A stretch of 63,534 nucleotides of DNA, counting the filler. It is 5 parts of 5 records of this genome, joined end to end, with 100 filler letters (N's around TTAATTAATTAA, not from the genome) between each part and the next. Parts side by side here need not be neighbours in the genome. Positions count along the whole stretch, not along the records: positions 1 to 23,191 come from SRR22947725_358; 4 more parts are not named here. One strand, written 5' to 3'. Shown piece by piece: positions 1 through 15,835 of the stretch. A program made the position numbers and the translations under genes. A model generated the notes under the pieces. It made no database searches. It worked only from the letters and a program-made list of their open reading frames with translations, and was not told the origin of the DNA. Position 1 is the stretch's first letter; every line of letters starts with the position of its first letter.

Positions 1-1667
1 TAAAACAGCCCGTCAATCTCGCCATTTTCATTTATAAAAATAGTCTCGGCGGCCGGATGTCTTGGCAGGCCAGGCATTGTCATGATTTCACCACAAACGG
101 CGACAATAAAGCCAGCGCCTGCGCTAATTCGCACTTCGCGAACTGGAATTACATGTCCAGTTGGCGCGCCACGTAAGTTGGGATCAGTAGAAAAGCTATA
201 CTGCGTCTTTGCCATACAAACTGGAAGATGGCCGTATCCCTGGGCTTCCCATTCTTTCAGCTGAGCTATGATTTTTTGATCTATCAAGGCTTCATCAGCT
301 CGATAAATGTTTTTACAAATAGTCTGGATTTTATCTTCCAATGACATATCGTCAGGATAGATAGTGGCGAAATTTGCGGTATCAGAGTCAGCAATCTCAG
401 CAACGCGTTTAGCTAAGCTTTCTGAACCAGCTGAACCATCTGCCCAATGCTTGGATACTATAGCTTCAGTGCCCATCTCAGCACAATAATCCTGCACTGC
501 CTGAACCTCAGCGTCAGTATCTTTAACAAAATGATTAACAGCGACGACAACAGGCACTCCAAATGATTTCAAATTTTCAATGTGCCTGCCAAGGTTTGGA
601 CACCCTGACTTAACAGCATCCACATTTTCGTTGTTGAGGTCATTCTTGGCGACCCCACCATTCATTTTCATAGCCCTGACTGTGGCAACTAGAACAATAG
701 CTGATGGAGCCAAACCTGCCTTGCGGCATTTAATGTTGAGAAACTTTTCAGCCCCAAGGTCAGCTCCAAAGCCAGCTTCCGTTACGACATAATCAGCAAG
801 CTTCAGCGCCGTTTTTGTTGCAATCACTGAGTTACAACCATGCGCAATGTTAGCAAAAGGCCCCCCGTGCACAAACGCGGGGTTGTTTTCAAGGGTTTGC
901 AAGAGATTGGGCTGTATTGCGTCTTTTAACAACACCGTCATCGCCCCATCAGCTTTTATGTCACGGCAAAATACAGGGGACCGATCACGACGATAAGCAA
1001 CGATCATATCGCCAAGTCGCTTTTGCAAATCCGTTAAATCATTAGCCAAACACAAAATAGCCATAACTTCAGACGCTACGGTGATATCAAACCCAGCTTC
1101 ACGTGGAAACCCGTTGGCAACACCCCCTAGTGACGCAGTTATTTGTCTCAAGGCGCGATCATTCATGTCGACCACCCGCCGCCAAACAACTCGGCGCGTA
1201 TCGATTTCCAGTTCGTTGCCCCAATAGATATGATTATCAATCATGGCTGACAGTAATGAATGCGCCGATGTGATCGCATGGAAATCACCTGTGAAATGCA
1301 AATTCATGTCTTCCATCGGAACGATTTGCGCATAGCCGCCGCCAGCTGCACCACCTTTCATACCAAAGTTTGGCCCCAAAGAAGCCTCACGGATACAAAT
1401 CATCGCCTTCTTGCCAATACGGTTTAACCCATCGCCAAGGCCAACTGTTGTCGTTGTCTTGCCCTCACCCGCTGGCGTGGGATTGATGGCTGTGACCAAA
1501 ATCAGCTTGCCATCCTTGCGGTCCTGAACCGAATTAATGAAATTCTGGCTTACCTTCGCTTTATCATGACCAAATGGAACCAGCTCAGCAGACGGTATGC
1601 CCAAAACATCACCAATTTCAAAAATGGGCTTCTTCTCCGCCGCACGTGCGATCTCTATATCACTCAT
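1..1667 (-). CDS. fhs: formate--tetrahydrofolate ligase (last base of stop codon lies off the window edge)
   Basis: Not in the ORF track. Manual translation from ATG 1667 (AGGAG upstream) gives [19 protein letters not shown]..., [37 protein letters not shown], and ends ...EIDGLF. Confidence 0.96.
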
Positions 1668-1844
1668 GAAATTCTCCTAAAAATTATGCCGCAAGTCCCA
1701 CGCCCTCGGCAGGGCTAGGCTACTACAATGCCAATAAAAAAGTGGGCTATGTTGAAGTTATGTGCAGATAAGATTGGTATGCTATCAAACACAAAGCCTC
1801 TTTAAAAAGCAGTATTACTTGATCTTTACCTTTAACTGAAGCTC

Positions 1845-1895
1845 GGACGGAGGCGCTATTTTAACCCTCCTATGAGGTTAATGACGCCGCCATCC
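1845..1895 (-). terminator. long imperfect stem-loop between the panB-like gene and fhs (terminator or mRNA-stabilising hairpin)
   Basis: Minus strand GGATGGCGGCG...TTAACC(TC)/(GAG)GGTTAA...CGCCTCCGTCC forms nested pairing about 20 nt after the panB-like stop. There is no clear U-tract. Confidence 0.4.
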
Positions 1896-1917
1896 AAGTC
1901 ATGCTCGTTACCTCAGA

Positions 1918-2805
1918 TTACCCGAGCTCATCAAGCTTACGCTCCCACTTCATATCTTTCGCAAACTTACGCAGCTCATCTTCAGGCATTTTTATTGTGT
2001 TTTCTGGACCAGGGTAGTTTCTGGTTTTCACATCATCCATATATCGGGTTATAACATCTTCCATAATCGGAATTAGATCTGTGTATATCCGAGAGTGCTT
2101 AGGCACATGCTCTTCCCACAGGTGGAACAAGTCCGAAGAAATGATATGGACACCGTCAGCACAGTTACCGGCACCCAAACTAATTACTGGTACTGGCAGA
2201 ATTTCAGCCAAGTATTCCGCAACCTCTGATGTTGTGACTTCACAAAGTATTGAGAAGCAGCCAGCATCGTACATTGCTTTAGCGTCATCGATTAACTCTT
2301 TGGCACGGTCTGCAGTCTTGCCCTGCGCAATAAAACCGCCAAGTTGAGGCATCCGCATTGGGGTGATACCGATATGGCCCTGAACAGGTATGCCGGCACT
2401 AACAATCGCCTCTATCGCGGGCACGTGATGACGGTTGCCCTCACACTTCATTACCTCAGCGTTAGCTTCGTGGACAAAACGCCCTGCATTTTCAACGGCC
2501 TGCTCTTTCGAAACGTGAAAACTCCAGTACGGCATATCGACCATTCTTAACCCATACTTGGACCCTCGATCAATCGCCTTTGACATCATCATCACTTCAT
2601 CAAAGCTAACAGCAGTTGTGCTCTGGTGACCAAATAAGATCATCCCACCCGTGTCTGAAACACACAATATATCCATGCCCAAGCGATCAGCGACAACTGC
2701 GGTTCTGTAATCATACGCCGCTAATTGGGTTATCGGCTCACCAGCTGCCATTTTCTTCTGCAATGTCTTAAACGTAACTTTCCTTCTTGGCTTGGCGTCA
2801 CTCAT
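1918..2805 (-). CDS. panB: PanB-family (ketopantoate hydroxymethyltransferase-like) protein, divergent
   Basis: Family motifs are present in variant form: AAYD, CVSDTGGM, VDMPYWSF, KCEGN, GHIGITPM, GAG..ADG. ATG 2805 has a GGAGG RBS. Confidence 0.8.
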   Translation of the reverse strand: MSDAKPRRKVTFKTLQKKMAAGEPITQLAAYDYRTAVVADRLGMDILCVSDTGGMILFGHQSTTAVSFDEVMMMSKAIDRGSKYGLRMVDMPYWSFHVSKEQAVENAGRFVHEANAEVMKCEGNRHHVPAIEAIVSAGIPVQGHIGITPMRMPQLGGFIAQGKTADRAKELIDDAKAMYDAGCFSILCEVTTSEVAEYLAEILPVPVISLGAGNCADGVHIISSDLFHLWEEHVPKHSRIYTDLIPIMEDVITRYMDDVKTRNYPGPENTIKMPEDELRKFAKDMKWERKLDELG

Positions 2806-2918
2806 TTTTTCCTCCACTTGATTTAATCAGCTAAATACAAGCTGTTTACTGCGTTCGCAGCTTATTTTTCAAAATATTAACTATTAGGTATCATAACGGC
2901 TTTGAAATAAAATCTCTC

Positions 2919-2930
2919 TTGGCTATTAGC
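2919..2930. promoter_or_regulatory. candidate operator TTGGCTATTAGC upstream of the panB-like gene
   Basis: 12/12 match to the palindrome at 6154-6168 read on the opposite strand, at a similar distance from the start codon. Confidence 0.35.
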
Positions 2931-2975
2931 TCTATTGTGATGTCTATTTTCTAAGGGCCGCGAGAGCTTTTTTGA

Positions 2976-3725
2976 TTAAACAAAAATTACGTTGGTCAGC
3001 ATATAAATGCCAGACCCAAGTAATAAAAAGGCAACTAAATTCTTTATCTTGTCGACTGGTAAATGCTCAGACACTTTTGCACCAAGAAATGCACCCAAAG
3101 CTAAACCAGGTGACAAAAGCGCAACAATCTCCCAACGTATCATTCCTGACAATTCATTCCCAATAGTGGCAAATGCAGCGATAGGAATCTGGATCGCCTG
3201 CGACAAACCAATAACAGGGAGCAATGGCATCGATAAAAAGGTTAATATCGGCACTAAAACTAGCGGTCCACCAGTTCCACTGAGCACAGACAAACACGCA
3301 GTTACAAAGCCAACTAGTAGAAGGCTGACGTTTGATGGAGTAGTTTGATTGCGGGGGCGCGTCAACTTTATATTAGCAATCTGTTTGTATGACGCAAAAA
3401 TCAGAACGGCAGCAATAAAAAGTTTAAGTGATTCAGCATTAATTCTAGGGAGGGTATACGTGCCGACCAACGTCCCTGGGATTGCGCCTACCGTCAAGTA
3501 AACTAGCTGGAGCCAATTGATCTCACGCCTCTTTGCATAGGCAAGACTGCCGATTAAACCGGAAAAAATAAAAGAGGAAACCGCAGCAGCTATGCTAGAA
3601 TGGATGCTAAAGCCGGCGCCATAGACAAGCAACGGTACCAAAACTACGCCACCAATACCGGCAGCCCCTATCAAGGTTCCCGCAAATAAACCAAACAGAA
3701 AAACAAGACTGAACGACACCATCAC
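2976..3725 (-). CDS. TauE/SafE family sulfite exporter
   Basis: Hydrophobic 249-aa protein with the repeated GIGGVVLVP / GTGGPLVLVP motifs typical of TauE/SafE, located in a sulfonate catabolic context. Confidence 0.85.
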   Translation of the reverse strand: MMVSFSLVFLFGLFAGTLIGAAGIGGVVLVPLLVYGAGFSIHSSIAAAVSSFIFSGLIGSLAYAKRREINWLQLVYLTVGAIPGTLVGTYTLPRINAESLKLFIAAVLIFASYKQIANIKLTRPRNQTTPSNVSLLLVGFVTACLSVLSGTGGPLVLVPILTFLSMPLLPVIGLSQAIQIPIAAFATIGNELSGMIRWEIVALLSPGLALGAFLGAKVSEHLPVDKIKNLVAFLLLGSGIYMLTNVIFV

Positions 3726-3895
3726 TCCAATCGGTCAACTATAACGCAACATAATTCACTCGGAAAACTCAAACATAAATGATAACGTGATTGTCAGCAA
3801 AGGTTTTGACGGGCGTAATCCCTATTTTACAGGCAACTGCATTCAAACTATTTTCGTATTGGGTGAAAACAAAGTTTAGCTTAAAAGGCAACAGG

Positions 3896-4840
3896 ATGTT
3901 TCTGAAACAACTTGAATATCTTATCGCCGTTATCGAGGAAGATCACTTTGGACGGGCAGCAGCCCGGTGCAACGTTAAACAGCCCAGCTTATCAAACGGC
4001 ATAAAGCAATTAGAGTTTGAACTGGGTGTTACTCTATTCAAGAGAGGGCGCGGCCAACGCCTTTACGGCACTACGGAAGAAGGGGAACGCGTAGCTTACT
4101 GGGCCCGCCTAATCTTAGCTAATTGCACTGCCATGCGTGACAATATAGCTGAAATGCAGGACAGCTTAAATGGGACCATTCGCCTCGGCGCAATACCCTC
4201 AATGTCTCCTGTATTGCCAATTATTTTACAACGCATAAGAAAAGCATACCCCCTAGTCTCGGTCGATGTAAGATTTGTTGGAAATAATGAGTTAAAAACG
4301 AGTTTAGACAATTATTCGATTGACTGCGCCATAACCTACATAGACCAATCCGATGAAATGCCATGGTGTGAAGCCCTGCCAATTTTTGAGGAAACTTGGA
4401 GCTTATTGGTCCCCGACTCCTTTAAATTTGAGAACATGACTGAAATAACATGGGCAGAGGCTGCAGACCTACCACTGGCATTGCTACGACAATCAATGTA
4501 CGAGCGTTCAGTAATTGATCAAACATTTACCGTCGCTGGGAAAAGTGTTGTTCCAAAGATTGAGTCGGAGTCAATACTGCATTTAATGTTTCAAACCCAA
4601 TTTACAGAACTTTGCACGGTTATCCCGTCACACTACACCAGAATGCCTGGCCTTTATACTGGGACCAAAGCACTATTGTTAAAGGACCCAATTATACGAA
4701 AAGGAATAGGACTGTTTTGGGTAAAAACTGAGACAACCATTCCCGTCACAAAAATAACTGAAGAAGTTGGTCGTTCTCTTGCAAAAAACAATGAGCTACA
4801 GAATTTCCTTTATCATAAAGCAACTGCATTGGAGAGCTAA
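3896..4840 (+). CDS. LysR-family transcriptional regulator
   Basis: N-terminal HTH MFLKQLEYLIAVIEEDHFGRAAARCNVKQPSLSNGIKQLEFELG. ATG 3896 preferred over the TTG at 3791. Confidence 0.93.
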   Translation: MFLKQLEYLIAVIEEDHFGRAAARCNVKQPSLSNGIKQLEFELGVTLFKRGRGQRLYGTTEEGERVAYWARLILANCTAMRDNIAEMQDSLNGTIRLGAIPSMSPVLPIILQRIRKAYPLVSVDVRFVGNNELKTSLDNYSIDCAITYIDQSDEMPWCEALPIFEETWSLLVPDSFKFENMTEITWAEAADLPLALLRQSMYERSVIDQTFTVAGKSVVPKIESESILHLMFQTQFTELCTVIPSHYTRMPGLYTGTKALLLKDPIIRKGIGLFWVKTETTIPVTKITEEVGRSLAKNNELQNFLYHKATALES

Positions 4841-4880
4841 TACCCAGTTAGAGCTACTTTAAGATTTTTGATACAAAATA

Positions 4881-4911
4881 AGGAGCAGATATAAAATACC
4901 TGCTCCTTTTC
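4881..4911. terminator. probable bidirectional intrinsic terminator between lysR and msmA-like gene
   Basis: AGGAGCAG...CTGCTCCT inverted repeat followed by a T-run, between convergent genes. Confidence 0.65.
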
Positions 4912-4933
4912 TGTTCGACATCTTTTAGTTGGA

Positions 4934-6022
4934 TTATTCAGCAGCAATCACGTCCTCTGCGGTTAAGCCAAGAGGGTTGCTGGTAGATACTCCGAGGAAT
5001 TTTCCCCAGGCCTCGTAATAGTGGCGCATACCAACTTCATCATGAATCGTTGAGTTTTCGTGGCGACCATGCAAGATATTGCGGGCTTCGGTACCCTCTC
5101 TCATTGTTGTGCCTTGTCCTGAAACACCTATTAAATCCTCATGCAGATTACGGCCAAATGGGCCCCATATAGAGTTGTGGTGCTTTATACGGGTCTGACG
5201 CTCTTGTGGAGTATCTTTTTTAAGACCATAGCCCCTGAATTCGATGAGCACCTTGTTTGGACCAAGCGGCGTAACAGTGTCGCTTCTGTAAGCGCTCCCA
5301 CGGAGATTGAAATTGAAACCTGGGAACAAGTCTACCATGTACCATTGATTTGGCGGCAAGTTTGGAAAAGACAACTCCCCACGATCTTCAAACCCATCGT
5401 ACTCTTCATAGTTAACTGTGAAGCTGCTTACATTAACGTGGCCATTGTCAAACGGAATGTTTTTCCTAGCAAAATATTCATCATTGAACCCAGATACCCG
5501 GTTAAAATAATGCATGAAATCGTGGTAGAACTCACTGTTTGTATCGTGCCAGAGTTTGTAGTTAGTGTCGATAACTGCTTTGTGATAATGGAAAACTTCC
5601 ATTTCTTCAGTATCGATAGCGTCAGCAATGCAATCAAACGCGCCACAAGTCCATTCTTCAACGCTCTGTGTTGGATTAGGGTCGAGAGTTGTCCATACCA
5701 TGCCACCGTGCTTCACCTCGCTGTGAAGTTCCTTCAGTCCATCAGTATCCAATCCGTTACCGGCAGGGCGATCGATTGAAGGGCACAGAAAAACTTTTAT
5801 AGCGCCCTTACTATTTACCGCGACCACATTTTGGTGCGCTATCTGCGTTGACCGAAAATCACCGTCGTTAGCCATTTCGCTGAAGTGGCACATCGGAACC
5901 CAAACCTTCGCAAAAATATGCTCGATTTCCTGCTCATAAATGCTGTGATTATTGTAGCATTCGCTCGAAATGTGTTCGATATGTGGGGCTTTTAACCAAT
6001 TTTTATGATTTCTTGGCGGCAT
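4934..6022 (-). CDS. msmA: methanesulfonate monooxygenase alpha subunit-like protein: catalytic domain intact, Rieske ligands deleted
   Basis: Mononuclear-Fe region NYKLWHDTNSEFYHDFMH and C-terminal NLHEDL are present. There is no CxH...CxxH motif. ATG 6022 has a GGAG RBS. Confidence 0.85.
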   Translation of the reverse strand: MPPRNHKNWLKAPHIEHISSECYNNHSIYEQEIEHIFAKVWVPMCHFSEMANDGDFRSTQIAHQNVVAVNSKGAIKVFLCPSIDRPAGNGLDTDGLKELHSEVKHGGMVWTTLDPNPTQSVEEWTCGAFDCIADAIDTEEMEVFHYHKAVIDTNYKLWHDTNSEFYHDFMHYFNRVSGFNDEYFARKNIPFDNGHVNVSSFTVNYEEYDGFEDRGELSFPNLPPNQWYMVDLFPGFNFNLRGSAYRSDTVTPLGPNKVLIEFRGYGLKKDTPQERQTRIKHHNSIWGPFGRNLHEDLIGVSGQGTTMREGTEARNILHGRHENSTIHDEVGMRHYYEAWGKFLGVSTSNPLGLTAEDVIAAE

Positions 6023-6153
6023 TTCGCACTCCCATATAAATTTGTACATTGTCAGTTGAAGCAATCACTTATTGCTTGTAGAGCCAACATATACGGATTA
6101 TGATCCCTTTAGACACCATAAATGTCAACGAAGATCTGCAAAAATCATGCTAA

Positions 6154-6168
6154 TTGGCTAATAGCCAA
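6154..6168. promoter_or_regulatory. perfect 15-bp palindrome TTGGCTA-A-TAGCCAA upstream of msmA-like gene, candidate regulator site
   Basis: Seen directly in the sequence. A related site lies at 2919-2930. Confidence 0.45.
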
Positions 6169-6226
6169 AATCTAATATTGGTAAGAACACTCGCCTGAAA
6201 GTATTACCTCTTCAAGATATTGAGTA

Positions 6227-7072
6227 TTATTTCGCGTTATTAACCTCGGTGAACTTGTTAACAAGCTTTTTGACAAGCGCTACATCAGACGTGGGCTCAT
6301 TAACGATTGATTTTAATGGCAGCAAAGTTTGGGGGTCGTAGTCAAGTAGGTGAGTTTTTGAACTTCCATTTGCTTCACTATCTTTAACAAAGAAAAATGG
6401 TGTGGGGCGCAAATGATCACCGAGACTTATTCCAATTGAAGGTAATTTGACTAGCTCGTTGTCTGCGCTAACGTTGAGAGTCAAAGAAAACGATTCCGGT
6501 TCTAACGTTATCCATTGCCGACATTTTGCAAATTCAGGCTGTTGGGCAAGTGTGTGCGACGCACTTTGGAGTATTTCGTTTCCTTTAAACACGCAACAAT
6601 TCAAAGCATCGAGCTCTAATTTATAAGCTGAAGCTTTGTGGTCTTCAGTATCACCCATCAACATATTTGGCGACGAGAAAGGAAGATCAGTGGAAAATTT
6701 TGATTGATCGCGGTCTCTATGAAGCAATTCAACTAAGTACCATGCCTCTGCAAATGCGGGCGTTCTGTCGTCCAACCAAAAGCTGTGAGGAACCTTCTGG
6801 CCCCCTTCACAAAAATACAATTCTAAGTCAGGGAAATTCAGACCAATTTGAAGGTCGCCGTCAAAAGATCTAGTTCGAAAATTATTTGAATCTCTATGCC
6901 AGAATAAACTCAAGTGCCCATTATTTGGAGTCGCGTCTAGAAAACTATTGGCTCCTCGAGCCATCCAAAACAAAGCGTTGTGCGCTTCGATTCTTGCTTG
7001 CCCAAACTGTTTCGTGTCGAAAATGCTTACAGATGGCCATTGACTTGAATTGTTCAACAAATTCTCTCTCAA
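6227..7072 (-). CDS. hypothetical protein in the msm cluster
   Basis: 281-aa ORF co-oriented with the msm genes. No motif recognised and the start is uncertain. Confidence 0.65.
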   Translation of the reverse strand: MRENLLNNSSQWPSVSIFDTKQFGQARIEAHNALFWMARGANSFLDATPNNGHLSLFWHRDSNNFRTRSFDGDLQIGLNFPDLELYFCEGGQKVPHSFWLDDRTPAFAEAWYLVELLHRDRDQSKFSTDLPFSSPNMLMGDTEDHKASAYKLELDALNCCVFKGNEILQSASHTLAQQPEFAKCRQWITLEPESFSLTLNVSADNELVKLPSIGISLGDHLRPTPFFFVKDSEANGSSKTHLLDYDPQTLLPLKSIVNEPTSDVALVKKLVNKFTEVNNAK

Positions 7073-7225
7073 TCAGTACCATCTGATTTTAACTTGATTT
7101 TTCAGCAAGTTATCAAATGTTGGTATCGTTTTAGTCAAGCAAATCGATCTATCGTTTTGGTAACCTCGCAGCACGGTTCCAATCGATGTGAAATTTGGTC
7201 AGAATATTTTTATGAACGAGTTTGC

Positions 7226-7627
7226 TTACCACTCATCATCGTCGTCATCATCATCAAAAAAAGTATTTTCATCGATATCTTCATCTTCGTCGAAATTATA
7301 TTCAAGTTGCTCAGTAACATAAACCATTACGTTACTGCCTTCGACTTTGACATCGTATGTTTTAAGAGGCAACTCCGCCTCGTCCTGCAACTCCAAAGTT
7401 TCAAGGTCCCATGACCACAAATGCTTTGTACAAGTAAGCTTACAACCCATTACAAGGCCAGACTCTTCCAACGGTTCCTCAAGGTGAGGGCAAACTGGGG
7501 GTATGGCAACAAAGCCTTTCTTGTGATGAGCAACAGCAATAGGGATCCCTCCGCCAATACGAGCCCAAACTTTTTTAATTGAGCCTTCTGGTATCTCACT
7601 CTTGTCACAGACTTTTGTCCAAGTCAT
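7226..7627 (-). CDS. msmC: Rieske [2Fe-2S] ferredoxin (MSA monooxygenase ferredoxin-like) with acidic tail
   Basis: CPH-x17-CTKH motif and typical MTWTKVC start (ATG 7627). Follows the msmB-like gene. Confidence 0.88.
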   Translation of the reverse strand: MTWTKVCDKSEIPEGSIKKVWARIGGGIPIAVAHHKKGFVAIPPVCPHLEEPLEESGLVMGCKLTCTKHLWSWDLETLELQDEAELPLKTYDVKVEGSNVMVYVTEQLEYNFDEDEDIDENTFFDDDDDDDEW

Positions 7628-7697
7628 GTATTTTGCTCTCTTTATAAACTCAATTTCACTAAAGGCGTGGAATGCGTACAGCCGCCAAGACTCCAAT

Positions 7698-8198
7698 CTA
7701 GAGAGGCCAATGCGAGCCTTTATCGAGGCGCCTGTTATCTATTTTTGTTTCTCGATTAACAAATTTTGGCAAACTATCATTGATCAAAAATTTGTCATGA
7801 TACTTTCCAATCACAAAAAGTCTGCTTTCTCCAGAATCAAGGTGAGAATTAATCCCATCAAGCATATTTTGATAAATTACCACTGAACTTACAGCCTCTG
7901 CGGTTTTGCCATCCTCCGAAATATCTATGGTGTAAACAGATGTGTGCCTGTGAAGTGGTGAGTGATCAGTGTTATGTTTAGGCAGCATGTCCATGAGGCC
8001 AGTTAGCTCTTTTTTATCACCGCTGAAATAGGTCATATCCTTACCAATTTCGGGGCTATAAGACGTTATCGAGTAGAAAAAAGAGTCATCACAGAGATTG
8101 AACCAGTCAGCCCAGTTATTTTCATCCAGTGCCAGCGCGGCCTGATAAATTATTTTCTCAATCTTTCTCTCAATATTAACTAGTGAGTTGTTTTCCAT
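7698..8198 (-). CDS. msmB: ring-hydroxylating oxygenase beta subunit (MSA monooxygenase small subunit-like)
   Basis: About 165 aa, NTF2/SnoaL-like: ALALDENNWADW, YSITSYSPEI, LPKHNTDHSPLHRH, IDNRRLDKGSHWPL. Lies between the alpha-like gene and the ferredoxin. Confidence 0.85.
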   Translation of the reverse strand: MENNSLVNIERKIEKIIYQAALALDENNWADWFNLCDDSFFYSITSYSPEIGKDMTYFSGDKKELTGLMDMLPKHNTDHSPLHRHTSVYTIDISEDGKTAEAVSSVVIYQNMLDGINSHLDSGESRLFVIGKYHDKFLINDSLPKFVNRETKIDNRRLDKGSHWPL

Positions 8199-8305
8199 CT
8201 TTTTACTTTCCAAGTCCGCGTTTGATAATTTAAGTTAAAAATCTGCGTTAACGGTAGTGTTATTTCTTTGCCCTTAAAGGCCCAAGAAAACTGCGTAAAT
8301 TCTCT

Positions 8306-10696
8306 CTAGGATCTCGCCCCACCACTATCTATGGGAGAGAACGACAAGTCAGATATCTGCTCTGGATCTGGCGATTGCCCTGTATCTAAGCATTGCCGCG
8401 CTTCCATGTAAGTTGCAGGGTCGTTCACAACCTCAACCGCCACTAATTCTTTGCCTCGATAGCTCCAAAAAGATACTGCTCCATCACGTCTACCCTCACG
8501 GGCAACCTGATAGACATCGTCATCACTAATCGGGACAACACCTACTATTTGGAGTTTTACATCATACTGGTCGGACCAAAACCATGGGGTTTGCAACGTT
8601 GGCGCAACTGACCCGGTAACTGCTGCTGCTGCTACAGCTGCCGTCTCCTGAGCGTTGTGGACCGACTCAATTGCCAACAACTGATCACGGCGCAACGCGA
8701 CGTCACCCACGGCAAATACGTCCTTTTCACTAGTTTGCATAGTCTCGTCAACGAGAATGGCTCCACCACCTTTTCTCTGCGTCTCTATTCCAGCTTCTGC
8801 AGCCAACTTGCTATCGGGAAAAACACCAATACCGGTGATGAGCATGTCTCCAACAATTTTTTGACCGCTAGTGAGTGTGACACTATCAAAAATACCATCT
8901 TCTGCATTAATACTATCAACGCCAACGCCTGTGAGCACTTGCACCCCATTATCCTCGTGCAATTTCGTCAAGCGATCCGCTAGTGGTCCACTGGCAACCC
9001 TTGCTAAAATTCTCTCGGCAGCCTCTATAACGGTTACTGTCATTCCTTTTTTCCGAAGAGAGGCTGCAACCTCAAGCCCAATGTAGCCGCCGCCAATAAT
9101 CACAACCGTATCAGAATTATTTGCAGCCTGGCGAATGGCATTTGCATCAGACGGTTGACGCAAGGTAAAAGCATTACCCATCCCATGGGTATCAGGCAGT
9201 TCACGAGGAATCGCACCGCTGGCAATCACTAGGTTGTCGTAATTTATAATCGCTCCGCTACTAACTGTTATTGTCTTGTTCTTTGTGTCAATGGCCTCAA
9301 CGTTGGACTGCGTTTTGAGTTTAATTTTGTTAGCCTTGTACCACTTCTTTTGTCTCAACAGTGACTTTGACTCAACCGTCTCACCTCCCCCCAGCAGGAA
9401 CGCTTTTGAGAGGGGTGGTCGCTCCATTGGCCCACCAACCTGACGGTCAAAGACAGTCAAACGACCACCAAAACCATTTTTTCGGACCTTATCCACAAAA
9501 GCCACGCCAGCGTGACTTGCTCCAATGACCACAATATGAGGCCCAGAAAGCTCGCCATTCTCACTGAGTCCCTGAGCTTTGGAACTTGAGTTGGGTAACT
9601 CTGAAATACGTGTTTCACCATTTGGATGCTTATCCATCCAGCGCAACCATTCATTGTTATAATGGATGAACAAACCATTCTCTTCAACGTGGCCCGATTT
9701 GCTCTCGTTAGGTTCCGGCATCTTTTGCAAACGGAAGGGCCCAAACTTGGCATTATAGTGTTTTGACCGAAGCCTTCTCTCTTCTTCACTGTCTGCTTTG
9801 GGCGCCAAGCCCCGATTCTCAATCATTACTTGACTATCGTTCAAGGGAGTAATGGTCGCTACATTTAAGGTAGGTCCATCAAGGTGAAATGCAAAGCCAG
9901 GAAAAAGCCTGACGCTTGCGGATTGTAAGGACTCTGGAGGCGGGAAAGTGCTTGTCTGACTTGCATCGCTATTTTCAACTTCACCGTGTCTTGTCACGAT
10001 GTGTCCATAATCAAACATATTAGCGTTTGCATCGCCAGCAATCGACTCAAAATCTTGAGACATTAATTGTTGATAACCTGTGTCCACGACTTCCTTGTGA
10101 TAATGGACGACTTCAAGCGGTTCAGCGCAAATTTCCGCTTCAATTGCCGAAAATGCCGCCCCAGCCCATTCCTCAAGGAAAACGGCTGGCTGATCGTTCA
10201 TATTCACCCAAACGAATCCGCCATAATTGACTTCGCACCGCAACCTTCGCAGGCCCGCATCATCCTTACAAAACCTATCTTGATAACCTTCTTTCTCACG
10301 AGCTACGTATACGCAGTTGCCTCTCATATCAAATTGCCAAGCGTGAAACATGCAGGTGATCCTTTTTGGATTACCGGATGCTTGCCCTTCAAGGAAACTC
10401 CCTTGCGGTCGCCGCTCAATGAGCATTCCTCTGTGAGGACAAACGTTTAAAAGCGCGTTTACCTTTCCGTCCGGCGCCCGGCAAATGATTACATTCTCAT
10501 TGCCAATGCTCGATGTGCGAAAGTCATAAGGATCAGGCAGTTCAGACTCGTGGCATACTGGAACCCAAGCATTCTTGAAGATCCTTGATTGCTCTTCAAT
10601 AAAACCTTGGTCTAGCGCCCTGACCGCGACTTTAGCAGAAGTAGTTGACTGATCATTGTTGGTTAGAGCGTCGGGGTTGTTTTCTACGAAATCCAT
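8306..10696 (-). CDS. fusion of MsmA-type Rieske domain, degenerate catalytic domain and GR-type FAD/NADH ferredoxin reductase
   Basis: CPH (10433-10441)-x26-CMFH (10343-10354). Fe ligands are missing from the middle domain. The C-terminal ~410 aa carry VVIGASHAG, IGGGYIGLE, VFAVGDVA and PWFWSDQY. Confidence 0.9.
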   Translation of the reverse strand: MDFVENNPDALTNNDQSTTSAKVAVRALDQGFIEEQSRIFKNAWVPVCHESELPDPYDFRTSSIGNENVIICRAPDGKVNALLNVCPHRGMLIERRPQGSFLEGQASGNPKRITCMFHAWQFDMRGNCVYVAREKEGYQDRFCKDDAGLRRLRCEVNYGGFVWVNMNDQPAVFLEEWAGAAFSAIEAEICAEPLEVVHYHKEVVDTGYQQLMSQDFESIAGDANANMFDYGHIVTRHGEVENSDASQTSTFPPPESLQSASVRLFPGFAFHLDGPTLNVATITPLNDSQVMIENRGLAPKADSEEERRLRSKHYNAKFGPFRLQKMPEPNESKSGHVEENGLFIHYNNEWLRWMDKHPNGETRISELPNSSSKAQGLSENGELSGPHIVVIGASHAGVAFVDKVRKNGFGGRLTVFDRQVGGPMERPPLSKAFLLGGGETVESKSLLRQKKWYKANKIKLKTQSNVEAIDTKNKTITVSSGAIINYDNLVIASGAIPRELPDTHGMGNAFTLRQPSDANAIRQAANNSDTVVIIGGGYIGLEVAASLRKKGMTVTVIEAAERILARVASGPLADRLTKLHEDNGVQVLTGVGVDSINAEDGIFDSVTLTSGQKIVGDMLITGIGVFPDSKLAAEAGIETQRKGGGAILVDETMQTSEKDVFAVGDVALRRDQLLAIESVHNAQETAAVAAAAVTGSVAPTLQTPWFWSDQYDVKLQIVGVVPISDDDVYQVAREGRRDGAVSFWSYRGKELVAVEVVNDPATYMEARQCLDTGQSPDPEQISDLSFSPIDSGGARS

Positions 10697-11009
10697 CTGA
10701 GCACCTTTCGAGAGAATATTATATATTTTTATCTCAGGCGTCGCTTATGACAACCGCTGATACGATTATGCTACACTATCACTTGATCGTTTTTATGAAT
10801 AATCAAATGACTTGATAGTTCCAGAAAATCATTCTTAGATTTATCCTAGGATTATTAAAGTTACCGTTCAGAGTTGGCAATATAATCCGACCATTCACTA
10901 TTAAAACTGTGTGAGTTTAGAGCTCAGTTTTACGGCAATAGTGATAATTTACTTGTGTTGAAGCAAAATTTAGCAGCAACATGGAAGTTAAACCAATTGG
11001 GAGGGAAGA

Positions 11010-12116
11010 ATGATTAATATTTTAAAAACATCCGTTAAAATGGCGGCTCTCGGTGCTGTCGTGATGGGAGCATCGGCCGCCAATGCTGGCGTTGATTTTG
11101 GAAAAAGAGGTGAAGCCGTTAACTTGGTAATCGGTTATCAGCCTTATTATACCGAGTCTTGGACAGGTGTGGTGAATAACGGGAAAAGCTTTTGGAAAAA
11201 ACATCTTCCAGCTGGTTCTACCGCTGAATTTCAGGTTGGGCTTCAGGGCTCAGTTATTGTGAATGCAATGGCTGGAGAAAAGCAGCACATTGGTTACATG
11301 GGTGACATGCCTGCTATCGCGTCCACCTTTAAGTACTTGCCCGAGCGTGGTGGCACTGACATTCGCATCGTTGCCGCTCTTGGCACTTCAAAGCAGCAAT
11401 GTAATATTTTCCTTGTGAAAAATGATGCGCCTAAATTTGCTGATGGTGTCGCAGCTGTTAAGTGGATGGACGGGAAAATTACATCCGCCCCTCACGGTGC
11501 TTGTACCGACAGATTTGCTCAGGCAGCTTTTAAATCAGCAGGCGTAAAGCCAGCAAAATATCTCAATCAAAACATTGAGGTTATCACCACCAATTTTCGG
11601 GCTGGCAAACTAGATGCAGCAGCCATTTGGGAGCCAACAGCAACCAAGATGGTTAAATCTGGTATTGCACGTCGCGCGGCATCGGGTGAAGATTTTGGTC
11701 TTCAGGATGGTGCGTTCATGGTGATGCTGAATGACCTGATTTCACAGCGTCCTGATGCTGTCATGGGCTGGCTAGAAGCCGAGCTTGACGCTCAAGAGTT
11801 TGTTGCCAACCCAGGCAATGCTGATGCAATCGCAGCAATGGCTGAGGCTCAGACCGAAAAAATTGACCAGTCAGTTCTGAAGGCCAGTCTTTATGATTCG
11901 CCAATGGCAGGAACAACCAAATTGCAGCTTGATTTCACAATCAGTGACGATGCGAAATCACTGCTTCGCGATGCAACGGCATTCTTATACAGCTTGAAGA
12001 AGAAGCCAGCTGCGGCCCCACAAATTCGTCCAGAGGGCGTTATGGGTCAGTTTGCAGAGCGCGTGCTTGAAAAGCGTGGCTTAAAGACTCCAGTCGGACG
12101 CATTGTAGCGAAATAA
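11010..12116 (+). CDS. msmE: sulfonate/nitrate-type ABC transporter substrate-binding protein (MsmE-like)
   Basis: Signal peptide, IGYQPYYTESW, IGYMGDMPAI, AAIWEPTA. Divergent from the msm oxygenase genes. Confidence 0.85.
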   Translation: MINILKTSVKMAALGAVVMGASAANAGVDFGKRGEAVNLVIGYQPYYTESWTGVVNNGKSFWKKHLPAGSTAEFQVGLQGSVIVNAMAGEKQHIGYMGDMPAIASTFKYLPERGGTDIRIVAALGTSKQQCNIFLVKNDAPKFADGVAAVKWMDGKITSAPHGACTDRFAQAAFKSAGVKPAKYLNQNIEVITTNFRAGKLDAAAIWEPTATKMVKSGIARRAASGEDFGLQDGAFMVMLNDLISQRPDAVMGWLEAELDAQEFVANPGNADAIAAMAEAQTEKIDQSVLKASLYDSPMAGTTKLQLDFTISDDAKSLLRDATAFLYSLKKKPAAAPQIRPEGVMGQFAERVLEKRGLKTPVGRIVAK

Positions 12117-12131
12117 TTTATCCAAACTTAG

Positions 12132-12165
12132 AACCAAGGCCCACCCAGAGTTGGGCCTTGGTTTT
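12132..12165 (+). terminator. stem-loop after the binding-protein gene (partial terminator or stabiliser)
   Basis: AACCAAGGCCCA...TGGGCCTTGGTT 12-bp stem followed by TT. Confidence 0.7.
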
Positions 12166-12282
12166 CTAAATTGATTAATTATTTATTTAGTTATTTCGTA
12201 TTTCCACATTCAACGAATGAAATGTCGCCTTTGGATAGACATGTTGAGTAAAACGCAAAGTATTTAGTACCGGAGCGAAGAA

Positions 12283-13155
12283 ATGAACACTTCAGCAGAT
12301 TCAAACAAGGTTGCACCCGAGGGTTTTAACCTCTTCCTTTACCGGACAAAGAAGAAATTTAGTGGGCCTGACCCATACTTGACAATTGCAGGGGTATTCT
12401 TGTGGCTTTTTGTTTATTGGGTCTTGTGTGAAGGGCTTCAGGTCTGGCGCTTTACCAAATTACCTGGACCGGTAGCAATTTCCAAGGACTGGTTTTCCAT
12501 GACACCATTCCAAGGTATTTCAATTTTTACACAAGAGTATTACGATCATATTTATGTCAGCTGCCAACGAATTCTCATTGCGTTTGGCATTGCTACCGGT
12601 CTCGGGGTGCCCCTCGGACTATTCATGGGTTGGTCCAGATCCATCAGGGATTATATCTTTCCAATCATTGAGTTGCTCCGCCCAATCCCAATCCTCGCAT
12701 GGGTCCCGCTATCCATTTTGTTGCTACCCGGTTTTGAGGGACCAGTGATTTTCCTTGCGACTTTAGCATCATTTTTTGTCACGACACTTAATGCCATGCT
12801 TGGGGTCGACTCAATCGATGAAGAGTATTTCAGAGCCGCAGGCTGTTTAGGTTCATCCCGTTGGGACGTATTTAAAAACGTGGTTGTTCCTGGAGCCTTG
12901 CCATTCATTTTTACTGGCTTGCAAATATCTATCGGAGTTGCATGGTTCTCTCTGGTGGCTGCTGAAATGGTTTCTGGAGATCTGGGCTTGGGTTACCTAA
13001 TCGTTGATGCCTACATGAACAATGTAACCGTTCCGATGGTTATCGCCATGATCACTCTTGGTTTTATTGGCTATTTTAGTTCTGCCTGTGTGCGCGCTCT
13101 TGGGGACAGGTTGATGGCTTGGCACGTTAAGGAGCTTGCCCAACAAGGACGGTAA
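12283..13155 (+). CDS. msmF: ABC transporter permease (SsuC/TauC type, MsmF-like)
   Basis: LRPIPILAWVP, EAA-like loop RAAGCLGSS, LVAAEM. Confidence 0.82.
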   Translation: MNTSADSNKVAPEGFNLFLYRTKKKFSGPDPYLTIAGVFLWLFVYWVLCEGLQVWRFTKLPGPVAISKDWFSMTPFQGISIFTQEYYDHIYVSCQRILIAFGIATGLGVPLGLFMGWSRSIRDYIFPIIELLRPIPILAWVPLSILLLPGFEGPVIFLATLASFFVTTLNAMLGVDSIDEEYFRAAGCLGSSRWDVFKNVVVPGALPFIFTGLQISIGVAWFSLVAAEMVSGDLGLGYLIVDAYMNNVTVPMVIAMITLGFIGYFSSACVRALGDRLMAWHVKELAQQGR

Positions 13156-13187
13156 TCAATTTTTTGCGATCAAATCTTTAAAACAAA

Positions 13188-14057
13188 TTGGACATGAAAG
13201 TTAAATCAATGGCTAAAAACACCTCAAAAGCAGAAAAAAAAGGTGCGCTAAGCATTAAGAACGTCACAAAAATTTATGATCCTACTGGCGTAAATGTGAT
13301 GGCTGTTGATGACTGCTCCATGGAAATAGCGGGTGGTGAAGTATGTATGATTGTTGGGCCCTCAGGATGCGGTAAAACTACTTTGTTAAATGGTATTGCA
13401 GGATTTCATTCAATAACAGAGGGAAGTATCCATCTGGACGGCGAACTACTTTGTGGACCAGGAAAGCCAAAGGCTGATCAGAGCGCTGAACGTATGGTCG
13501 TATTCCAGCATGGCGCACTTTTTCCATGGAAGACATTACAAGAGAATGTCGCTTATGGCCCGTCCGTTCAAAAAGCTTTGTCGCCAGCACAAGCCCTGGA
13601 CAAAGCAGGACAAATGCTTGCAGAAGCAGGGTTGGGAAACTTTCTTAAAAAATACCCTGGTGAAGTATCCTCTGGCATGGCTAGGCGCGCCGAAATTGTG
13701 AGAGCCTTGATTAACAACCCAAAAGTTCTTTTATTGGACGAGCCCTACCGTGCGATGGACGCGCTAACAAAACAGATTATGCATGAATCACTTCTCGAAA
13801 CCTACGATCGTACCGGAGTAACAATCTTTTTTATTACCCACGATTTGGAGGAGGCAATATTCCTTGGTGACAAAGTCCACATTGTCACGACTCGACCCTG
13901 TCAGCTTAAAAAGACTGTGGAGGTGAAAATACCTCGCCCGCGTTCCTACGAAACACAGTCATCTGAAAAGTTTAGAAAGCTGCTCGCAGAAGTTAATGAC
14001 GCTGTTCACGAGGAAGCAGTCAAAGCCTTTAAAGCGGGCGAGAGAGAACTGGCTTAA
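13188..14057 (+). CDS. msmG: ABC transporter ATP-binding protein (MsmG-like) with variant signature
   Basis: Walker A GPSGCGKT, signature VSSGM, Walker B LLLDE, H-loop ITH. The start may be ATG 13194 or 13209. Confidence 0.85.
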   Translation: MDMKVKSMAKNTSKAEKKGALSIKNVTKIYDPTGVNVMAVDDCSMEIAGGEVCMIVGPSGCGKTTLLNGIAGFHSITEGSIHLDGELLCGPGKPKADQSAERMVVFQHGALFPWKTLQENVAYGPSVQKALSPAQALDKAGQMLAEAGLGNFLKKYPGEVSSGMARRAEIVRALINNPKVLLLDEPYRAMDALTKQIMHESLLETYDRTGVTIFFITHDLEEAIFLGDKVHIVTTRPCQLKKTVEVKIPRPRSYETQSSEKFRKLLAEVNDAVHEEAVKAFKAGERELA

Positions 14058-14119
14058 AACCCTAGAAATAACGAGACGCCCCGCAATGGGGACCGATTAG
14101 AAATACGACAGAGGCAACA

Positions 14120-14932
14120 ATGACTAATTTTCTGCAGAAGCTTTTCAAAAACACGACTACACGGCGCGGTATCGGAGCGGTCATTATTTTTGTGATCATA
14201 TGGCACATCGGATCGCAGCTTGATGAGTGGACTGGTTACGATTTGCTTGGTATTGGCCTTGTGCCACCGCCCGCGCATGTTTTTACTGCCTTTCTTGAAG
14301 TAATACCACTGCATGGTTACTGGATGAGTTGGGTGGCAAGCTTCAGCCGGGTAATTACTGGCTTCTTGGTTGCGATGCTGATCGGGATACCATTTGGGCT
14401 TTTGTTAGCAGTAAACCGATATTTTCGGGGCGTCTTTTTCCCTCCGTTTGAAATTCTAAGGCCCATACCGCCGCTTGCATGGGTGCCGGCGTCGCTGATT
14501 TTCTGGCCTACTAATGAAATGTCAATCGCATTTGTCACGTTCCTAGGCGCATTCTTTACTATTGTTATTAACGTCTTGGGTGGCGCCCGTAGCATAGACA
14601 TCAGTTATTTAAGGGCAGCTCAGTCTATGGGTGCAAGCCAGTTCGATCTCTTCTGGAAAATAGTTCTACCAGGAACACTACCATCCATTTTCACAGGCGC
14701 CGCTGTTGGCATGGGGATTACTTGGGAGGTTGTCTTGGCGGCAGAAATGATTTCTGGCGGCGGAACACAAGGTGGTGGTGGCCTCGGCTTCTTTATCTGG
14801 AACTCTTATATGGGCGGGTCTTTAGAACAAATCGTTGTTGGAATGATTTCCATCGGCATCGCCGGGTACCTTTCGTCAAGCGCGATAAGAAAAATTGGCT
14901 TTCACTTCATGCCGTGGCGCCGCCTTTTCTAG
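14120..14932 (+). CDS. msmH: ABC transporter permease (MsmH-like)
   Basis: LRPIPPLAWVP, RAAQSMGAS, VLAAEM. Confidence 0.82.
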   Translation: MTNFLQKLFKNTTTRRGIGAVIIFVIIWHIGSQLDEWTGYDLLGIGLVPPPAHVFTAFLEVIPLHGYWMSWVASFSRVITGFLVAMLIGIPFGLLLAVNRYFRGVFFPPFEILRPIPPLAWVPASLIFWPTNEMSIAFVTFLGAFFTIVINVLGGARSIDISYLRAAQSMGASQFDLFWKIVLPGTLPSIFTGAAVGMGITWEVVLAAEMISGGGTQGGGGLGFFIWNSYMGGSLEQIVVGMISIGIAGYLSSSAIRKIGFHFMPWRRLF

Positions 14933-14989
14933 ATCTAACTCAAATCAAAAACCATTAACAAACTGACTTTGAATTATCGGAGAAATTTT

Positions 14990-15835
14990 ATGGCAACAAC
15001 AAAATCAAAAAAGAAGGAGCCAAAAGCTACTCGTTCAAGAAAATTGGATAGTTCTTCAGTGTCCTTGAAAGGTGTAAGCAAATCTTACGGTGAAGAATGG
15101 CAGTCGGATGATGTTCTTAAAAATATTTCTGTCGATTTTCCCGCCGGCGAGTTGACAGTAATTGTTGGCCCTTCAGGCTGCGGCAAGTCAACACTTGTTA
15201 ATTTGTTGGCTGGATTTGAGACTCCCGATACAGGAGAAGTTCTTGTTGATGGAAAGCCAGTAACGGGGCCCGCAAAAGATAGGATGGTGGTTTTCCAAGA
15301 AACGGCTCTCATACCTTGGCAAACAACTCTTGAAAATGTCACTTTTGGTCCAAAGATGCGGGGAGAAAAGAAAGGGGCATCTTTACAAAGAGAGGCAGAA
15401 GACCTGTTGATCAAGGTTGGGCTTGGAGAGTTTATGAATAAATTCCCGATCCAGCTTTCAGGCGGCATGCAAAGGCGGGCTGAGTTAGCAAGAGCTCTAA
15501 TAAATGAGCCAACTGTTATGCTTATGGATGAACCTTTTCGTGGCCTTGATGCAATGTCTCGAAGCTTGATGCAAGAATTCTTCCTTGAGCTTTTTGAGGA
15601 GAACCAAAAAACCAACATTTTTGTGACTTCGGAGATTGATGAAGCTATTTTCTTGGCAGATAACTTAGTTATTCTCTCTAATAAGCCCACTACTGTTCAG
15701 ACAGTGATCAAAATTGATCTGCCGCGGCCCCGTAATTATAAAATGCTAACTACAGCCAAGGCCTTTAAATACAAGCGACAGGCCATGGATCTATTGCATG
15801 GTGAAGCAATGAAGAGTTTTGCGGTTCTTAAATAA
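14990..15835 (+). CDS. second ABC ATP-binding protein, H-loop His replaced by Ser
   Basis: GPSGCGKS, LSGGM, LMDE, and VTSE in place of VTHD. Confidence 0.88.
   Translation: MATTKSKKKEPKATRSRKLDSSSVSLKGVSKSYGEEWQSDDVLKNISVDFPAGELTVIVGPSGCGKSTLVNLLAGFETPDTGEVLVDGKPVTGPAKDRMVVFQETALIPWQTTLENVTFGPKMRGEKKGASLQREAEDLLIKVGLGEFMNKFPIQLSGGMQRRAELARALINEPTVMLMDEPFRGLDAMSRSLMQEFFLELFEENQKTNIFVTSEIDEAIFLADNLVILSNKPTTVQTVIKIDLPRPRNYKMLTTAKAFKYKRQAMDLLHGEAMKSFAVLK

Follow-up and report, generated by a model that had tools for sequence, protein, structure and literature searches.

Two complementary MsmA descendants in marine SAR116 bacteria: a probable split form of methanesulfonate monooxygenase

Methanesulfonate is a major product of the atmospheric oxidation of dimethylsulfide, and the SAR116 bacteria are among the most abundant bacteria of the surface ocean. 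The closest described relative of the system reported here is the methanesulfonate monooxygenase system MsmABCD/EFGH of Methylosulfonomonas methylovora M2 and Filomicrobium, in which the oxygenase genes follow the order A-B-C-D and the reductase MsmD is of the FNR type (Fer2, FAD_binding_6 and NAD_binding_1 domains). We analysed a 63,534-nucleotide stretch of DNA (the window), whose closest relative is a Candidatus Puniceispirillum (SAR116) metagenome-assembled genome (MAG; 96% protein identity). Open reading frame (ORF) calling revealed in it a five-gene operon on the minus strand, which encodes a fused protein here called F, an MsmB-like and an MsmC-like protein, a 281-aa protein and a protein here called α′. 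Both α′ and F are MsmA descendants, and msmB, msmC, a divergent SsuA-like sulfonate importer, a LysR gene and TauE accompany them as in the canonical loci. In contrast to MsmABCD, no single polypeptide of the window has both metal sites, the reductase is of the glutathione-reductase (GR) type and is fused to the Rieske-bearing copy, and the gene order is F-B-C-x-α′. We propose, with a probability of about 0.68, that the operon encodes a split oxygenase, with F as the electron-delivering and α′ as the catalytic partner, the α subunit being represented by two complementary MsmA descendants.

A split Rieske oxygenase has been described before. In the N7-demethylase NdmCDE of Pseudomonas putida CBB5 (Summers et al. 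2013), the Rieske domain is carried by the reductase, and the accessible part of a review gives this as the first reported case (PMC4408171). The first-pass annotation of the window had tentatively taken such an architecture to be undescribed; this suggestion of novelty was not upheld, as NdmCDE is a published split Rieske oxygenase (PMC4408171, accessible part) and the window has the same architecture, with a Rieske-less catalytic non-heme-iron subunit and a Rieske-bearing reductase polypeptide. The two systems differ in their composition. Going by the same text, NdmD is a reductase of the FNR type to which an extra Rieske domain has been added by itself, whereas F carries a whole dead α scaffold on a GR-type reductase, and the window also retains a β subunit and a free Rieske ferredoxin. 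Furthermore, Pfam and NCBIfam scans of the five operon proteins detected no GST, Fer2 or FNR domain, and thus no NdmE-like subunit. Because both halves in the window derive from MsmA, their origin is independent of NdmCDE. By analogy, the split msm system would work like NdmCDE but outside its lineage, from which it is set apart by architecture and not by a comparison with Ndm sequences.

The Rieske-less half was likewise on record. According to the accessible text of Henriques and De Marco 2015 (PMC4433239), strain IMCC1322 has two annotated MsmA proteins with a Rieske motif in one only, and MsmA sequences without the four Cys/His residues are common in GOS and virome data, phage HMO-2011 included; the Rieske-less sequences were left out of the tree of that study and were given no functional reading. 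SAR116 and phage forms of this half have been in print since 2015. In the available portions of PMC4928673, PMC8547437, PMC12262181 and the preprint 10.1101/2021.01.05.425418, viral or SAR116 msmA is handled as an ordinary gene, and that of PMC5068391 is silent on Rieske-less forms. The available portion of the review PMC12445004 makes no mention of an oligomer whose members each lack one site. In the literature, as far as the accessible texts go, we found no statement that the Rieske-bearing copy is without iron site or fused to a reductase; no paper was found which proposes α′ and F as partners. Split Rieske oxygenases are a known but rare kind of enzyme, of which the msm system is probably an independent variant, abundant in the sea, with an unusual retained pseudo-subunit and a direct link to a very common phage gene.

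The first-pass annotation had proposed two MsmA paralogues with complementary losses. Both ORFs were located on the minus strand where it had placed them (Table 1), every motif that it had quoted was found as written, and the complementary losses were confirmed by alignment, Pfam and tblastn. Canonical MsmA from Filomicrobium insigne (locus L026, operon msmA-B-C-D) was used as reference. Upon alignment, the Rieske region of α′ was reduced to about 14 residues, versus about 62 in canonical MsmA, with none of the four Cys/His left, and the iron-site motifs NYKLWHDTNSEFYHDFMHY and GPFGRNLHEDL were unchanged. What is left of the Rieske β-sandwich in this protein spans residues ~40-112; the catalytic domain is intact and contains E164, H167, H171 and D296, which by homology to other Rieske oxygenases we take to be the bridge and the iron site. 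F showed the reverse pattern: C86-P-H88-x26-C115-M-F-H118 is retained, and the iron-ligand segments are deleted or replaced, so that both His, the bridging Glu and the Asp are gone. Consequently, the MsmA Rieske motif CxH-x26-CxxH, with its spacer of 26 residues, is found in F and is absent from α′, and the mononuclear iron site with its bridging carboxylate is found in α′ alone.

The Pfam profiles agreed with this partition. F matched PF00355 (residues 44-132), PF07992 (387-686, E 6.4e-62) and PF14759 (705-786, E 1e-21), with no match to PF00848, and α′ had no match to PF00355; neither protein combines PF00355 and PF00848 in one chain. Residues 387-786 of F have the Pyr_redox_2 fold and the Reductase_C domain of GR-type ferredoxin-NAD(+) reductases, and the NCBIfam HcaD-like model matched this reductase with E 4.6e-86 and 289 bits, under its equivalog cut-off of 450 bits. 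The cluster-binding part of F is 84-92% identical to canonical MsmA and its catalytic part only 38-39%; for α′ the values are 80-82% in the catalytic domain and 19-47% in the Rieske parts. Over the whole protein, identity to F. insigne MsmA was 55% for α′ and 49% for the N-terminal part of F. When α′ was compared with F by BLASTP (30% identity, E 1e-37), the alignment contained a single large gap, at the cluster-binding part of the Rieske domain. On these sequence comparisons, α′ and F are paralogues. A tblastn search of the whole window with canonical MsmA returned the α′ and F genes alone, and no complete MsmA. As to the start of α′, an upstream TTG at 6064 offers an alternative; since all homologues begin with MP(P/A)RNH, position 6022 (362 aa) is likely the true one.

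The same partition was observed throughout the family. A word-indexed protein search with α′ returned 1,145 proteins at E 0.001 or better, and the best 120 α′ clusters (351-390 aa) were all devoid of PF00355. Relatives of F, 784-876 aa long, formed about 40 clusters that share its Pfam set, with PF00848 in none; where named, they carry the label 'FAD-dependent oxidoreductase'. We kept 80 genome loci, 23 with α′ and 57 with canonical MsmA, and aligned 174 sequences: 104 α′ (19 bacterial and 85 viral or phage-like), 14 F and 56 canonical MsmA. Rieske ligands occurred in 0/104 α′, and E164, H167, H171 and D296 in 104/104. For F, all 14 sequences had the Rieske ligands and none had any iron ligand, and each of the 56 canonical MsmA had all metal-site residues. 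The partition of ligands between α′ and F was therefore without exception in the 174 sequences. In a SAR116 genome with a 2.75-Mb contig, the dead domain of F has its full length; Gln and Lys stand where the two His would be, and the Asp region is gone. This less decayed F looks like an intermediate stage.

A second lineage of Rieske-less MsmA was also noticed. The metagenomic protein P0121 (358 aa, from an unnamed cluster of 5 members) is 56% identical to α′ and has intact iron-site motifs. Its deletion differs from that of α′, with the ERRP motif retained; the Rieske loops may have been lost independently in this lineage.

As each protein is without a cofactor site normally needed by its family, and as F is read as two ORFs in one single-cell genome (described below), one or both genes might be decaying pseudogenes or assembly artefacts. 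Selection was estimated for each domain as pairwise dN/dS (ω) by the Nei-Gojobori method. In F, ω was 0.012-0.034 for the Rieske domain, 0.08-0.24 for the dead scaffold and 0.03-0.09 for the reductase. Bacterial α′ gave 0.007-0.037 for the catalytic domain and 0.03-0.10 for the Rieske remnant, and viral α′ gave 0.02-0.07 and 0.19-0.26, respectively. Both genes are thus under purifying selection, with ω far below 1 in every domain and none pseudogene-like; the dead scaffold of F is relaxed yet still constrained. The Rieske domain, being the most constrained part of F, is therefore not vestigial.

The assembly was examined at the deletion and fusion sites by means of contigs from RNA libraries. 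Contigs from four libraries of three studies covered 28-30 of the 30 bins of positions 4800-10800 at 90-99% identity. Among the matches listed, four contigs span the junction between pseudo-α and reductase (9532-9580) and one spans the site of the α′ deletion (about 5702-5746), all without indel; the sole indels reported in these contigs lie at 6098 and in the acidic tail of the ferredoxin. Misassembly, which the first-pass annotation had named as a possible refutation, was thus not seen at either site. In addition, the same architecture was found in many independent MAGs, single-cell genomes and one 2.75-Mb contig, and public data hold more than 1,000 α′ clusters beside the F clusters. As far as sequence evidence goes, the pseudogene or artefact explanation is refuted, and its probability appears negligible.

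The association of the two genes in bacteria was examined in genomes to which related loci gave access. The order F, msmB, msmC, 281-aa gene, α′ was complete in 10 loci, nine of them with identical operons and the tenth (L015) with an F of 857 aa, and it was present in cut form in five more (L003, L005 and L010; L014 and L018 with an inserted molybdopterin oxidoreductase). F was present in 5/5 genomes with α′ that were checked individually. Among 192 Puniceispirillales species genomes, α′ was found in 15, all of which also had F (two as fragments at a contig end); one genome had F only, at a contig end, and one had canonical MsmA and neither half (Fisher p = 2e-21 for the association). No complete msmA was detected in the α′-bearing genomes searched, the one with the 2.75-Mb contig included, nor in the window; the activity would therefore not be supplied by a complete copy elsewhere in these genomes.

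Eight α′ loci were without F inside 8 kb. Three of them are from SAR116, with F 11-13 kb off on the same contig, and the other five are phage-like contigs, so that α′ without F in bacteria was rejected. A second host family was dropped as well: among 301 sampled genomes from the family of a 'Rhodobacteraceae' MAG, only two had α′, one of them 96% identical to that of the window and on a short contig. In view of this count, the Rhodobacteraceae and Planktomarina labels of loci L007 and L008 may be binning errors, and the claim is confined to SAR116. The supposed tie of the Rieske-less gene to the fusion thus holds in Puniceispirillales (15/15 with F) and fails on phage DNA, where α′ stands alone.

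To our knowledge, each α subunit of the solved α3α'3 and α3β3 Rieske oxygenases has both metal sites. The predicted fold of α′ resembled known α subunits. Its AlphaFold2 (AF2) model had a pLDDT of 89.1 and a pTM of 0.88, with the Rieske remnant as a confident β-sheet domain, and the best folds found by Foldseek were α subunits of α3β3 Rieske oxygenases, namely NagG (7c8z), TPADO (7q05 and 7vju) and IadD (8h2t), with E 3e-21 to 2e-19 and TM 0.72-0.76. The α subunits of NdmA/NdmB, TPADO and NagGH share this fold, and their usual neighbour interface from Rieske cluster to iron is the one predicted between F and α′. The complex was modelled with α′ and F residues 1-372, 2Fe-2S and Fe included, in three runs with three controls. 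The ipSAE was 0.89 in each of the three runs versus 0.00 in the best control; the mark applied, which is passed by 116/157 solved complexes and 2/215 mismatched pairs, is only roughly calibrated for this case, where own alignments and small molecules were used. The runs shared at least 64% of contacts, the partner pLDDT was at least 80, and that of F 1-372 was 80-81. The contacts of lowest error joined α′ 166-167 with F 117-118, that is, the iron ligand His167 with the Rieske ligand His118, and further low-error contacts joined α′ 302-306 and 316-321 with F 84-92 (the CPH loop) and 137-138. In the model, the contact between α′ and F is the productive head-to-tail neighbour geometry of Rieske oxygenases.

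In the split oxygenase that we propose, α′ keeps the substrate pocket, the iron site (His167, His171, Asp296) and the bridging Glu164, the [2Fe-2S]-binding loops being lost. F carries a near-unchanged MsmA Rieske domain on a dead α scaffold, fused to a GR-type NADH:ferredoxin reductase which would take over from the FNR-type MsmD of the classical system. Electrons would pass from NADH to the FAD of F, then to MsmC, then to the Rieske cluster of F and, across the subunit interface by way of Glu164, to the iron of the neighbouring α′. At this iron, O2 would be activated and methanesulfonate would be split into formaldehyde and sulfite; formaldehyde would go to the nearby tetrahydrofolate (THF)-linked enzymes and sulfite would be exported by TauE. 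The dead scaffold would most likely let F occupy an α position in an oligomer supported by MsmB, with its Rieske domain placed as that of a neighbouring α. The presence of the sulfonate ABC importer, the TauE sulfite exporter and formate-THF ligase fits a split msm system. The first-pass annotation had gone further and proposed an obligate hetero-oligomer: its division into an electron-delivery and a catalytic half agrees with the co-occurrence, the selection and the predicted interface, and its obligate assembly meets the difficulty of fitting two kinds of α-type subunit into a ring of three.

Several observations weigh against the split oxygenase. The solved Rieske oxygenases are C3-symmetric, namely α3, α3β3, α3α'3 or α3α3, in the accessible text of PMC12445004. 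Two types of subunit cannot alternate around a ring of three, so that each ring would contain at most one productive pair of F and α′ unless it is assembled in a new way. The operon also retains a separate Rieske ferredoxin, which leaves room for direct transfer from ferredoxin to α′, and within F the dead scaffold has a rate of evolution about ten times that of the Rieske domain. Since the α-α interfaces of relatives are already solved, the success of the complex model may reflect likeness and not binding. RNA libraries can contain DNA, and their contigs say nothing on the level of expression. In a single-cell SAR116 genome (G002; locus L087, 1453-3839), the reading frame of F is interrupted, giving ORFs of 330 and 465 aa with a 4-base overlap. 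As the break falls inside the last helix of the pseudo-α, this may be a frameshift or a sequencing error, and the locus was not counted as a natural unfused F or modular split.

The first of these observations are also those on which the main alternative explanation draws, in which MsmC feeds α′ directly by docking where the cluster-binding loops are gone. F would then be a reductase outside the oxygenase ring, its N-terminal Rieske domain serving as a relay from FAD to MsmC or persisting as a redundant relic. Such a scheme would explain why MsmC is kept in every complete operon although F has a Rieske centre; an α′3 ring with MsmB3 would preserve the C3 symmetry and raise no problem of ring parity (PMC12445004, accessible text); phages would need to bring α′ alone; and the tenfold relaxation of the catalytic scaffold of F relative to its Rieske domain would be in keeping with it. 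Against it, a redundant relic would not be the most constrained part of F, and this Rieske domain has stayed MsmA-like, with its high identity and 26-residue spacer, without drift to ferredoxin-like forms. The dead scaffold itself is under purifying selection, which is unexpected for a useless spacer. Moreover, Glu164, which by homology bridges the Rieske His of a neighbour to the iron His, is present in every α′ sequence, and the model places the Rieske ligands of F on His167 of α′, the pair modelled being α′ and F alone. We consider direct feeding by MsmC unlikely.

The phage copies of α′ bear on whether α′ and F are partners at all. Gp61 of Puniceispirillum phage HMO-2011 has the same Rieske-less form, with 74% identity over 93% of α′, and is annotated as 'methanesulfonate monooxygenase hydroxylase alpha subunit' with PF00848; phages carry α′ alone, in contrast to the window with all its partners. 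At least 601 viral contigs with α′ were found in IMG/VR, and a search of PHROGs with α′ matched no family. All iron-site residues were present in 85/85 viral α′, which are under purifying selection. In 80 viral loci (634 kb), F, msmB, msmC, the 281-aa gene, the LysR gene and the gene for the binding protein were found in none. According to the split oxygenase, phages of SAR116 would supply α′ alone, which would plug into the F, MsmB and MsmC of the host.

In five MAGs labelled Verrucomicrobiales, Candidatus Endobugula, Rickettsiales, Hellea and Legionellales (loci L016, L017, L019, L021 and L022), α′ lies among phage genes. Phage marks were terminase, portal and endolysin in L017, DnaB and ThyX in L016 and ribonucleotide reductase (RNR) in L019, and were weaker in L021 and L022; the L022 contig, of 27,770 bases, has the same length as an IMG/VR viral contig (L157). 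The five are probably viral contigs mis-binned into bacterial MAGs.

To the points already gathered against the split oxygenase, the phage copies add that α′ exists without F on phage DNA (0/80 viral loci with another msm gene) and that none of the five MAGs with phage-like α′ contigs holds F. If phages of this kind infect hosts without F, the split model would break for them. Furthermore, no paper was found in the literature giving an activity for the split form, and all strains proven to grow on methanesulfonate have a complete MsmA in the accessible text of PMC4433239. One may thus suppose that α′ and F are not partners in methanesulfonate oxidation, α′ having another substrate or donor and F being a stand-alone Rieske-flavoprotein. 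The spread of α′ in phages of possibly diverse hosts, the five MAGs of other taxa, the lack of any activity on record for the split form (PMC4433239, accessible text) and the second Rieske-less lineage P0121 would all suit this explanation. It has to account for the strict co-occurrence of α′ and F in bacteria, in one operon with msmB and msmC and next to an msmE-like importer, and for the fact that the sole cultured phage with α′ infects a SAR116 strain having both forms (PMC4433239, accessible text). A change of substrate is unlikely because the catalytic domain of α′ is so close, at the 80-82% identity given above, to the MsmA of a genus of proven methanesulfonate users. We regard this explanation as quite improbable.

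Concerning the origin of the pair, a duplication followed by reciprocal subfunctionalisation had been suggested. Each of α′ and F forms a monophyletic group that joins the radiation of canonical MsmA. Quick domain-wise trees placed α′ and F at different canonical subgroups and not as sisters, with weak support and long branches. In the approximately unbiased (AU) test, a single clade of α′ and F was not rejected (p = 0.911), and the log-likelihood of that tree was 31 units higher; long branches may draw α′ and F together in such a tree. The sequences are thus compatible with one duplication followed by reciprocal loss, a view which the AU test retains and the domain-wise trees do not bear out.

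If the split oxygenase is real, it would provide a second, independent and naturally abundant Rieske domain acting in trans, and its retained pseudo-subunit would help to show what specifies the transfer of electrons between subunits and the assembly of the ring. The complementary halves would explain how marine phages can carry the active-site half alone. Viral 'msmA' genes, which are counted as functional auxiliary metabolic genes (AMGs) in the accessible text of the preprint 10.1101/2021.01.05.425418, would be half-enzymes needing a host partner; their host range would be tied to F-bearing bacteria. Similarly, msmA markers or primers built on the x26 motif would detect F, which has no active site, and the catalytic gene would be missed or dismissed as defective. 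More tentatively, the split might be adaptive: the iron subunit would be an oxidation-prone, replaceable cartridge and F a permanent iron-sulfur/flavin scaffold in an asymmetric complex of a type not seen so far (a mixed ring of α-type subunits with dead positions, or one without C3 symmetry), and phages would encode the cartridge alone and fit it to the host scaffold during infection to sustain the supply of sulfite and one-carbon (C1) units. Viral 'msmA' counts in ocean surveys would then reflect a half-enzyme that depends on host F for its activity. This last idea is speculative, and we hold it to be rather doubtful.

The features of the locus are collected in Table 1. The ferredoxin of the window is 40-63% identical to MsmC of canonical loci and the β subunit 53-70% identical to MsmB; the binding protein of the importer has 47-75% identity to those of canonical msm loci and 91% to that of L064. 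The ferredoxin ORF opens at a TTG (7696), and the ATG at 7627 (MTWTKVC...) is the likelier start. The LysR gene stays adjacent to α′ in SAR116 loci.

Table 1. Features of the split msm locus, in window positions.
Feature	Position	Strand	Basis or remarks
TauE/SafE sulfite exporter	2976..3725	-	PF01925 E 2e-39
LysR-type regulator, divergent	3791..4840	+	PF00126, PF03466; likely start MFLKQLEYL near 3896
α′, Rieske-less MsmA catalytic subunit, 362 aa	4934..6022	-	PF00848 sole Pfam match
281-aa protein, no assigned family	6227..7072	-	between ferredoxin and α′
MsmC-like Rieske-type ferredoxin, acidic tail	7226..7696	-	PF00355 E 1.6e-10; NCBIfam HcaC/PRK09965-like
MsmB-like oxygenase β subunit, 171 aa	7698..8213	-	SnoaL_4 and Ring_hydroxyl_B, both under Pfam cut-offs
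F, 796 aa: Rieske, dead α scaffold and reductase	8306..10696	-	Pfam, alignment
F, linker and GR-type ferredoxin-NAD(+) reductase, residues ~373-796 and stop codon	8306..9580	-	PF07992, PF14759
F, degenerate α catalytic scaffold, residues ~191-372	9581..10126	-	alignment; no PF00848 match
F, Rieske domain, residues ~32-190	10127..10603	-	PF00355 E 5.9e-17; C86, H88, C115, H118
msmEFGH-like sulfonate ABC importer, divergent: substrate-binding protein, two permease/ATPase pairs	11010..15835	+	SsuA_fam, NMT1_2, BPD_transp_1, ABC_tran

The C-terminal tail of the ferredoxin is long and acidic (DEDEDIDE...DDDDDDDEW; window 7226-7260, minus strand). Its length varies between strains, as 3-base (TCA) insertions or deletions were seen at 7232-7245 in the RNA-library contigs.

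Beyond the LysR gene, the operon is adjoined by genes for formate-THF ligase, a PanB-like ketopantoate hydroxymethyltransferase and TauE (window 3-3725, minus strand). The same group was found in the SAR116 loci L009, L011 and L068. These genes together make up a compact set through which sulfite and the C1 units derived from formaldehyde are disposed of.

The gene for the 281-aa protein is kept in split and canonical msm clusters, in the latter often beside the LysR gene. Homologues (tblastn, at least 200 residues) with 28-93% identity were found in 34 other loci, 20 of them canonical msm. Pfam and NCBIfam scans of the protein gave no match. Its AF2 model had a pLDDT of 88.3, and a Foldseek search with this model matched nothing at E 0.001 or better. 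The C-terminal half is weakly frataxin/CyaY-like (Z 6.1, root-mean-square deviation 3.3 over 90 residues); in the wide structural search, all matches had Z of 6.8 or less, within the stated noise range of the tool. An atlas offered a DUF5996 lead, on 29% of members. A part in iron delivery to the oxygenase or in its assembly is conceivable for the protein, and a frataxin-like or NdmE-like role would be a guess. In the single-cell genome AG-447-A06 (L002, 6965-7807), the homologue has one in-frame stop codon.

A subgroup of SAR116 has three further genes, a molybdopterin oxidoreductase set, inserted after msmC and before the 281-aa gene (L171, 6412-11002; L014, 2367-6937). One codes for a catalytic subunit of 962 aa; the other two are a Cys-rich ORF of 249 aa, probably for a 4Fe-4S protein, and a hydrophobic ORF of 312 aa, probably for a membrane anchor. 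This set is possibly a sulfite dehydrogenase of the soeABC-like type. In the accessible text of PMC8547437, it bears a dmsABC annotation.

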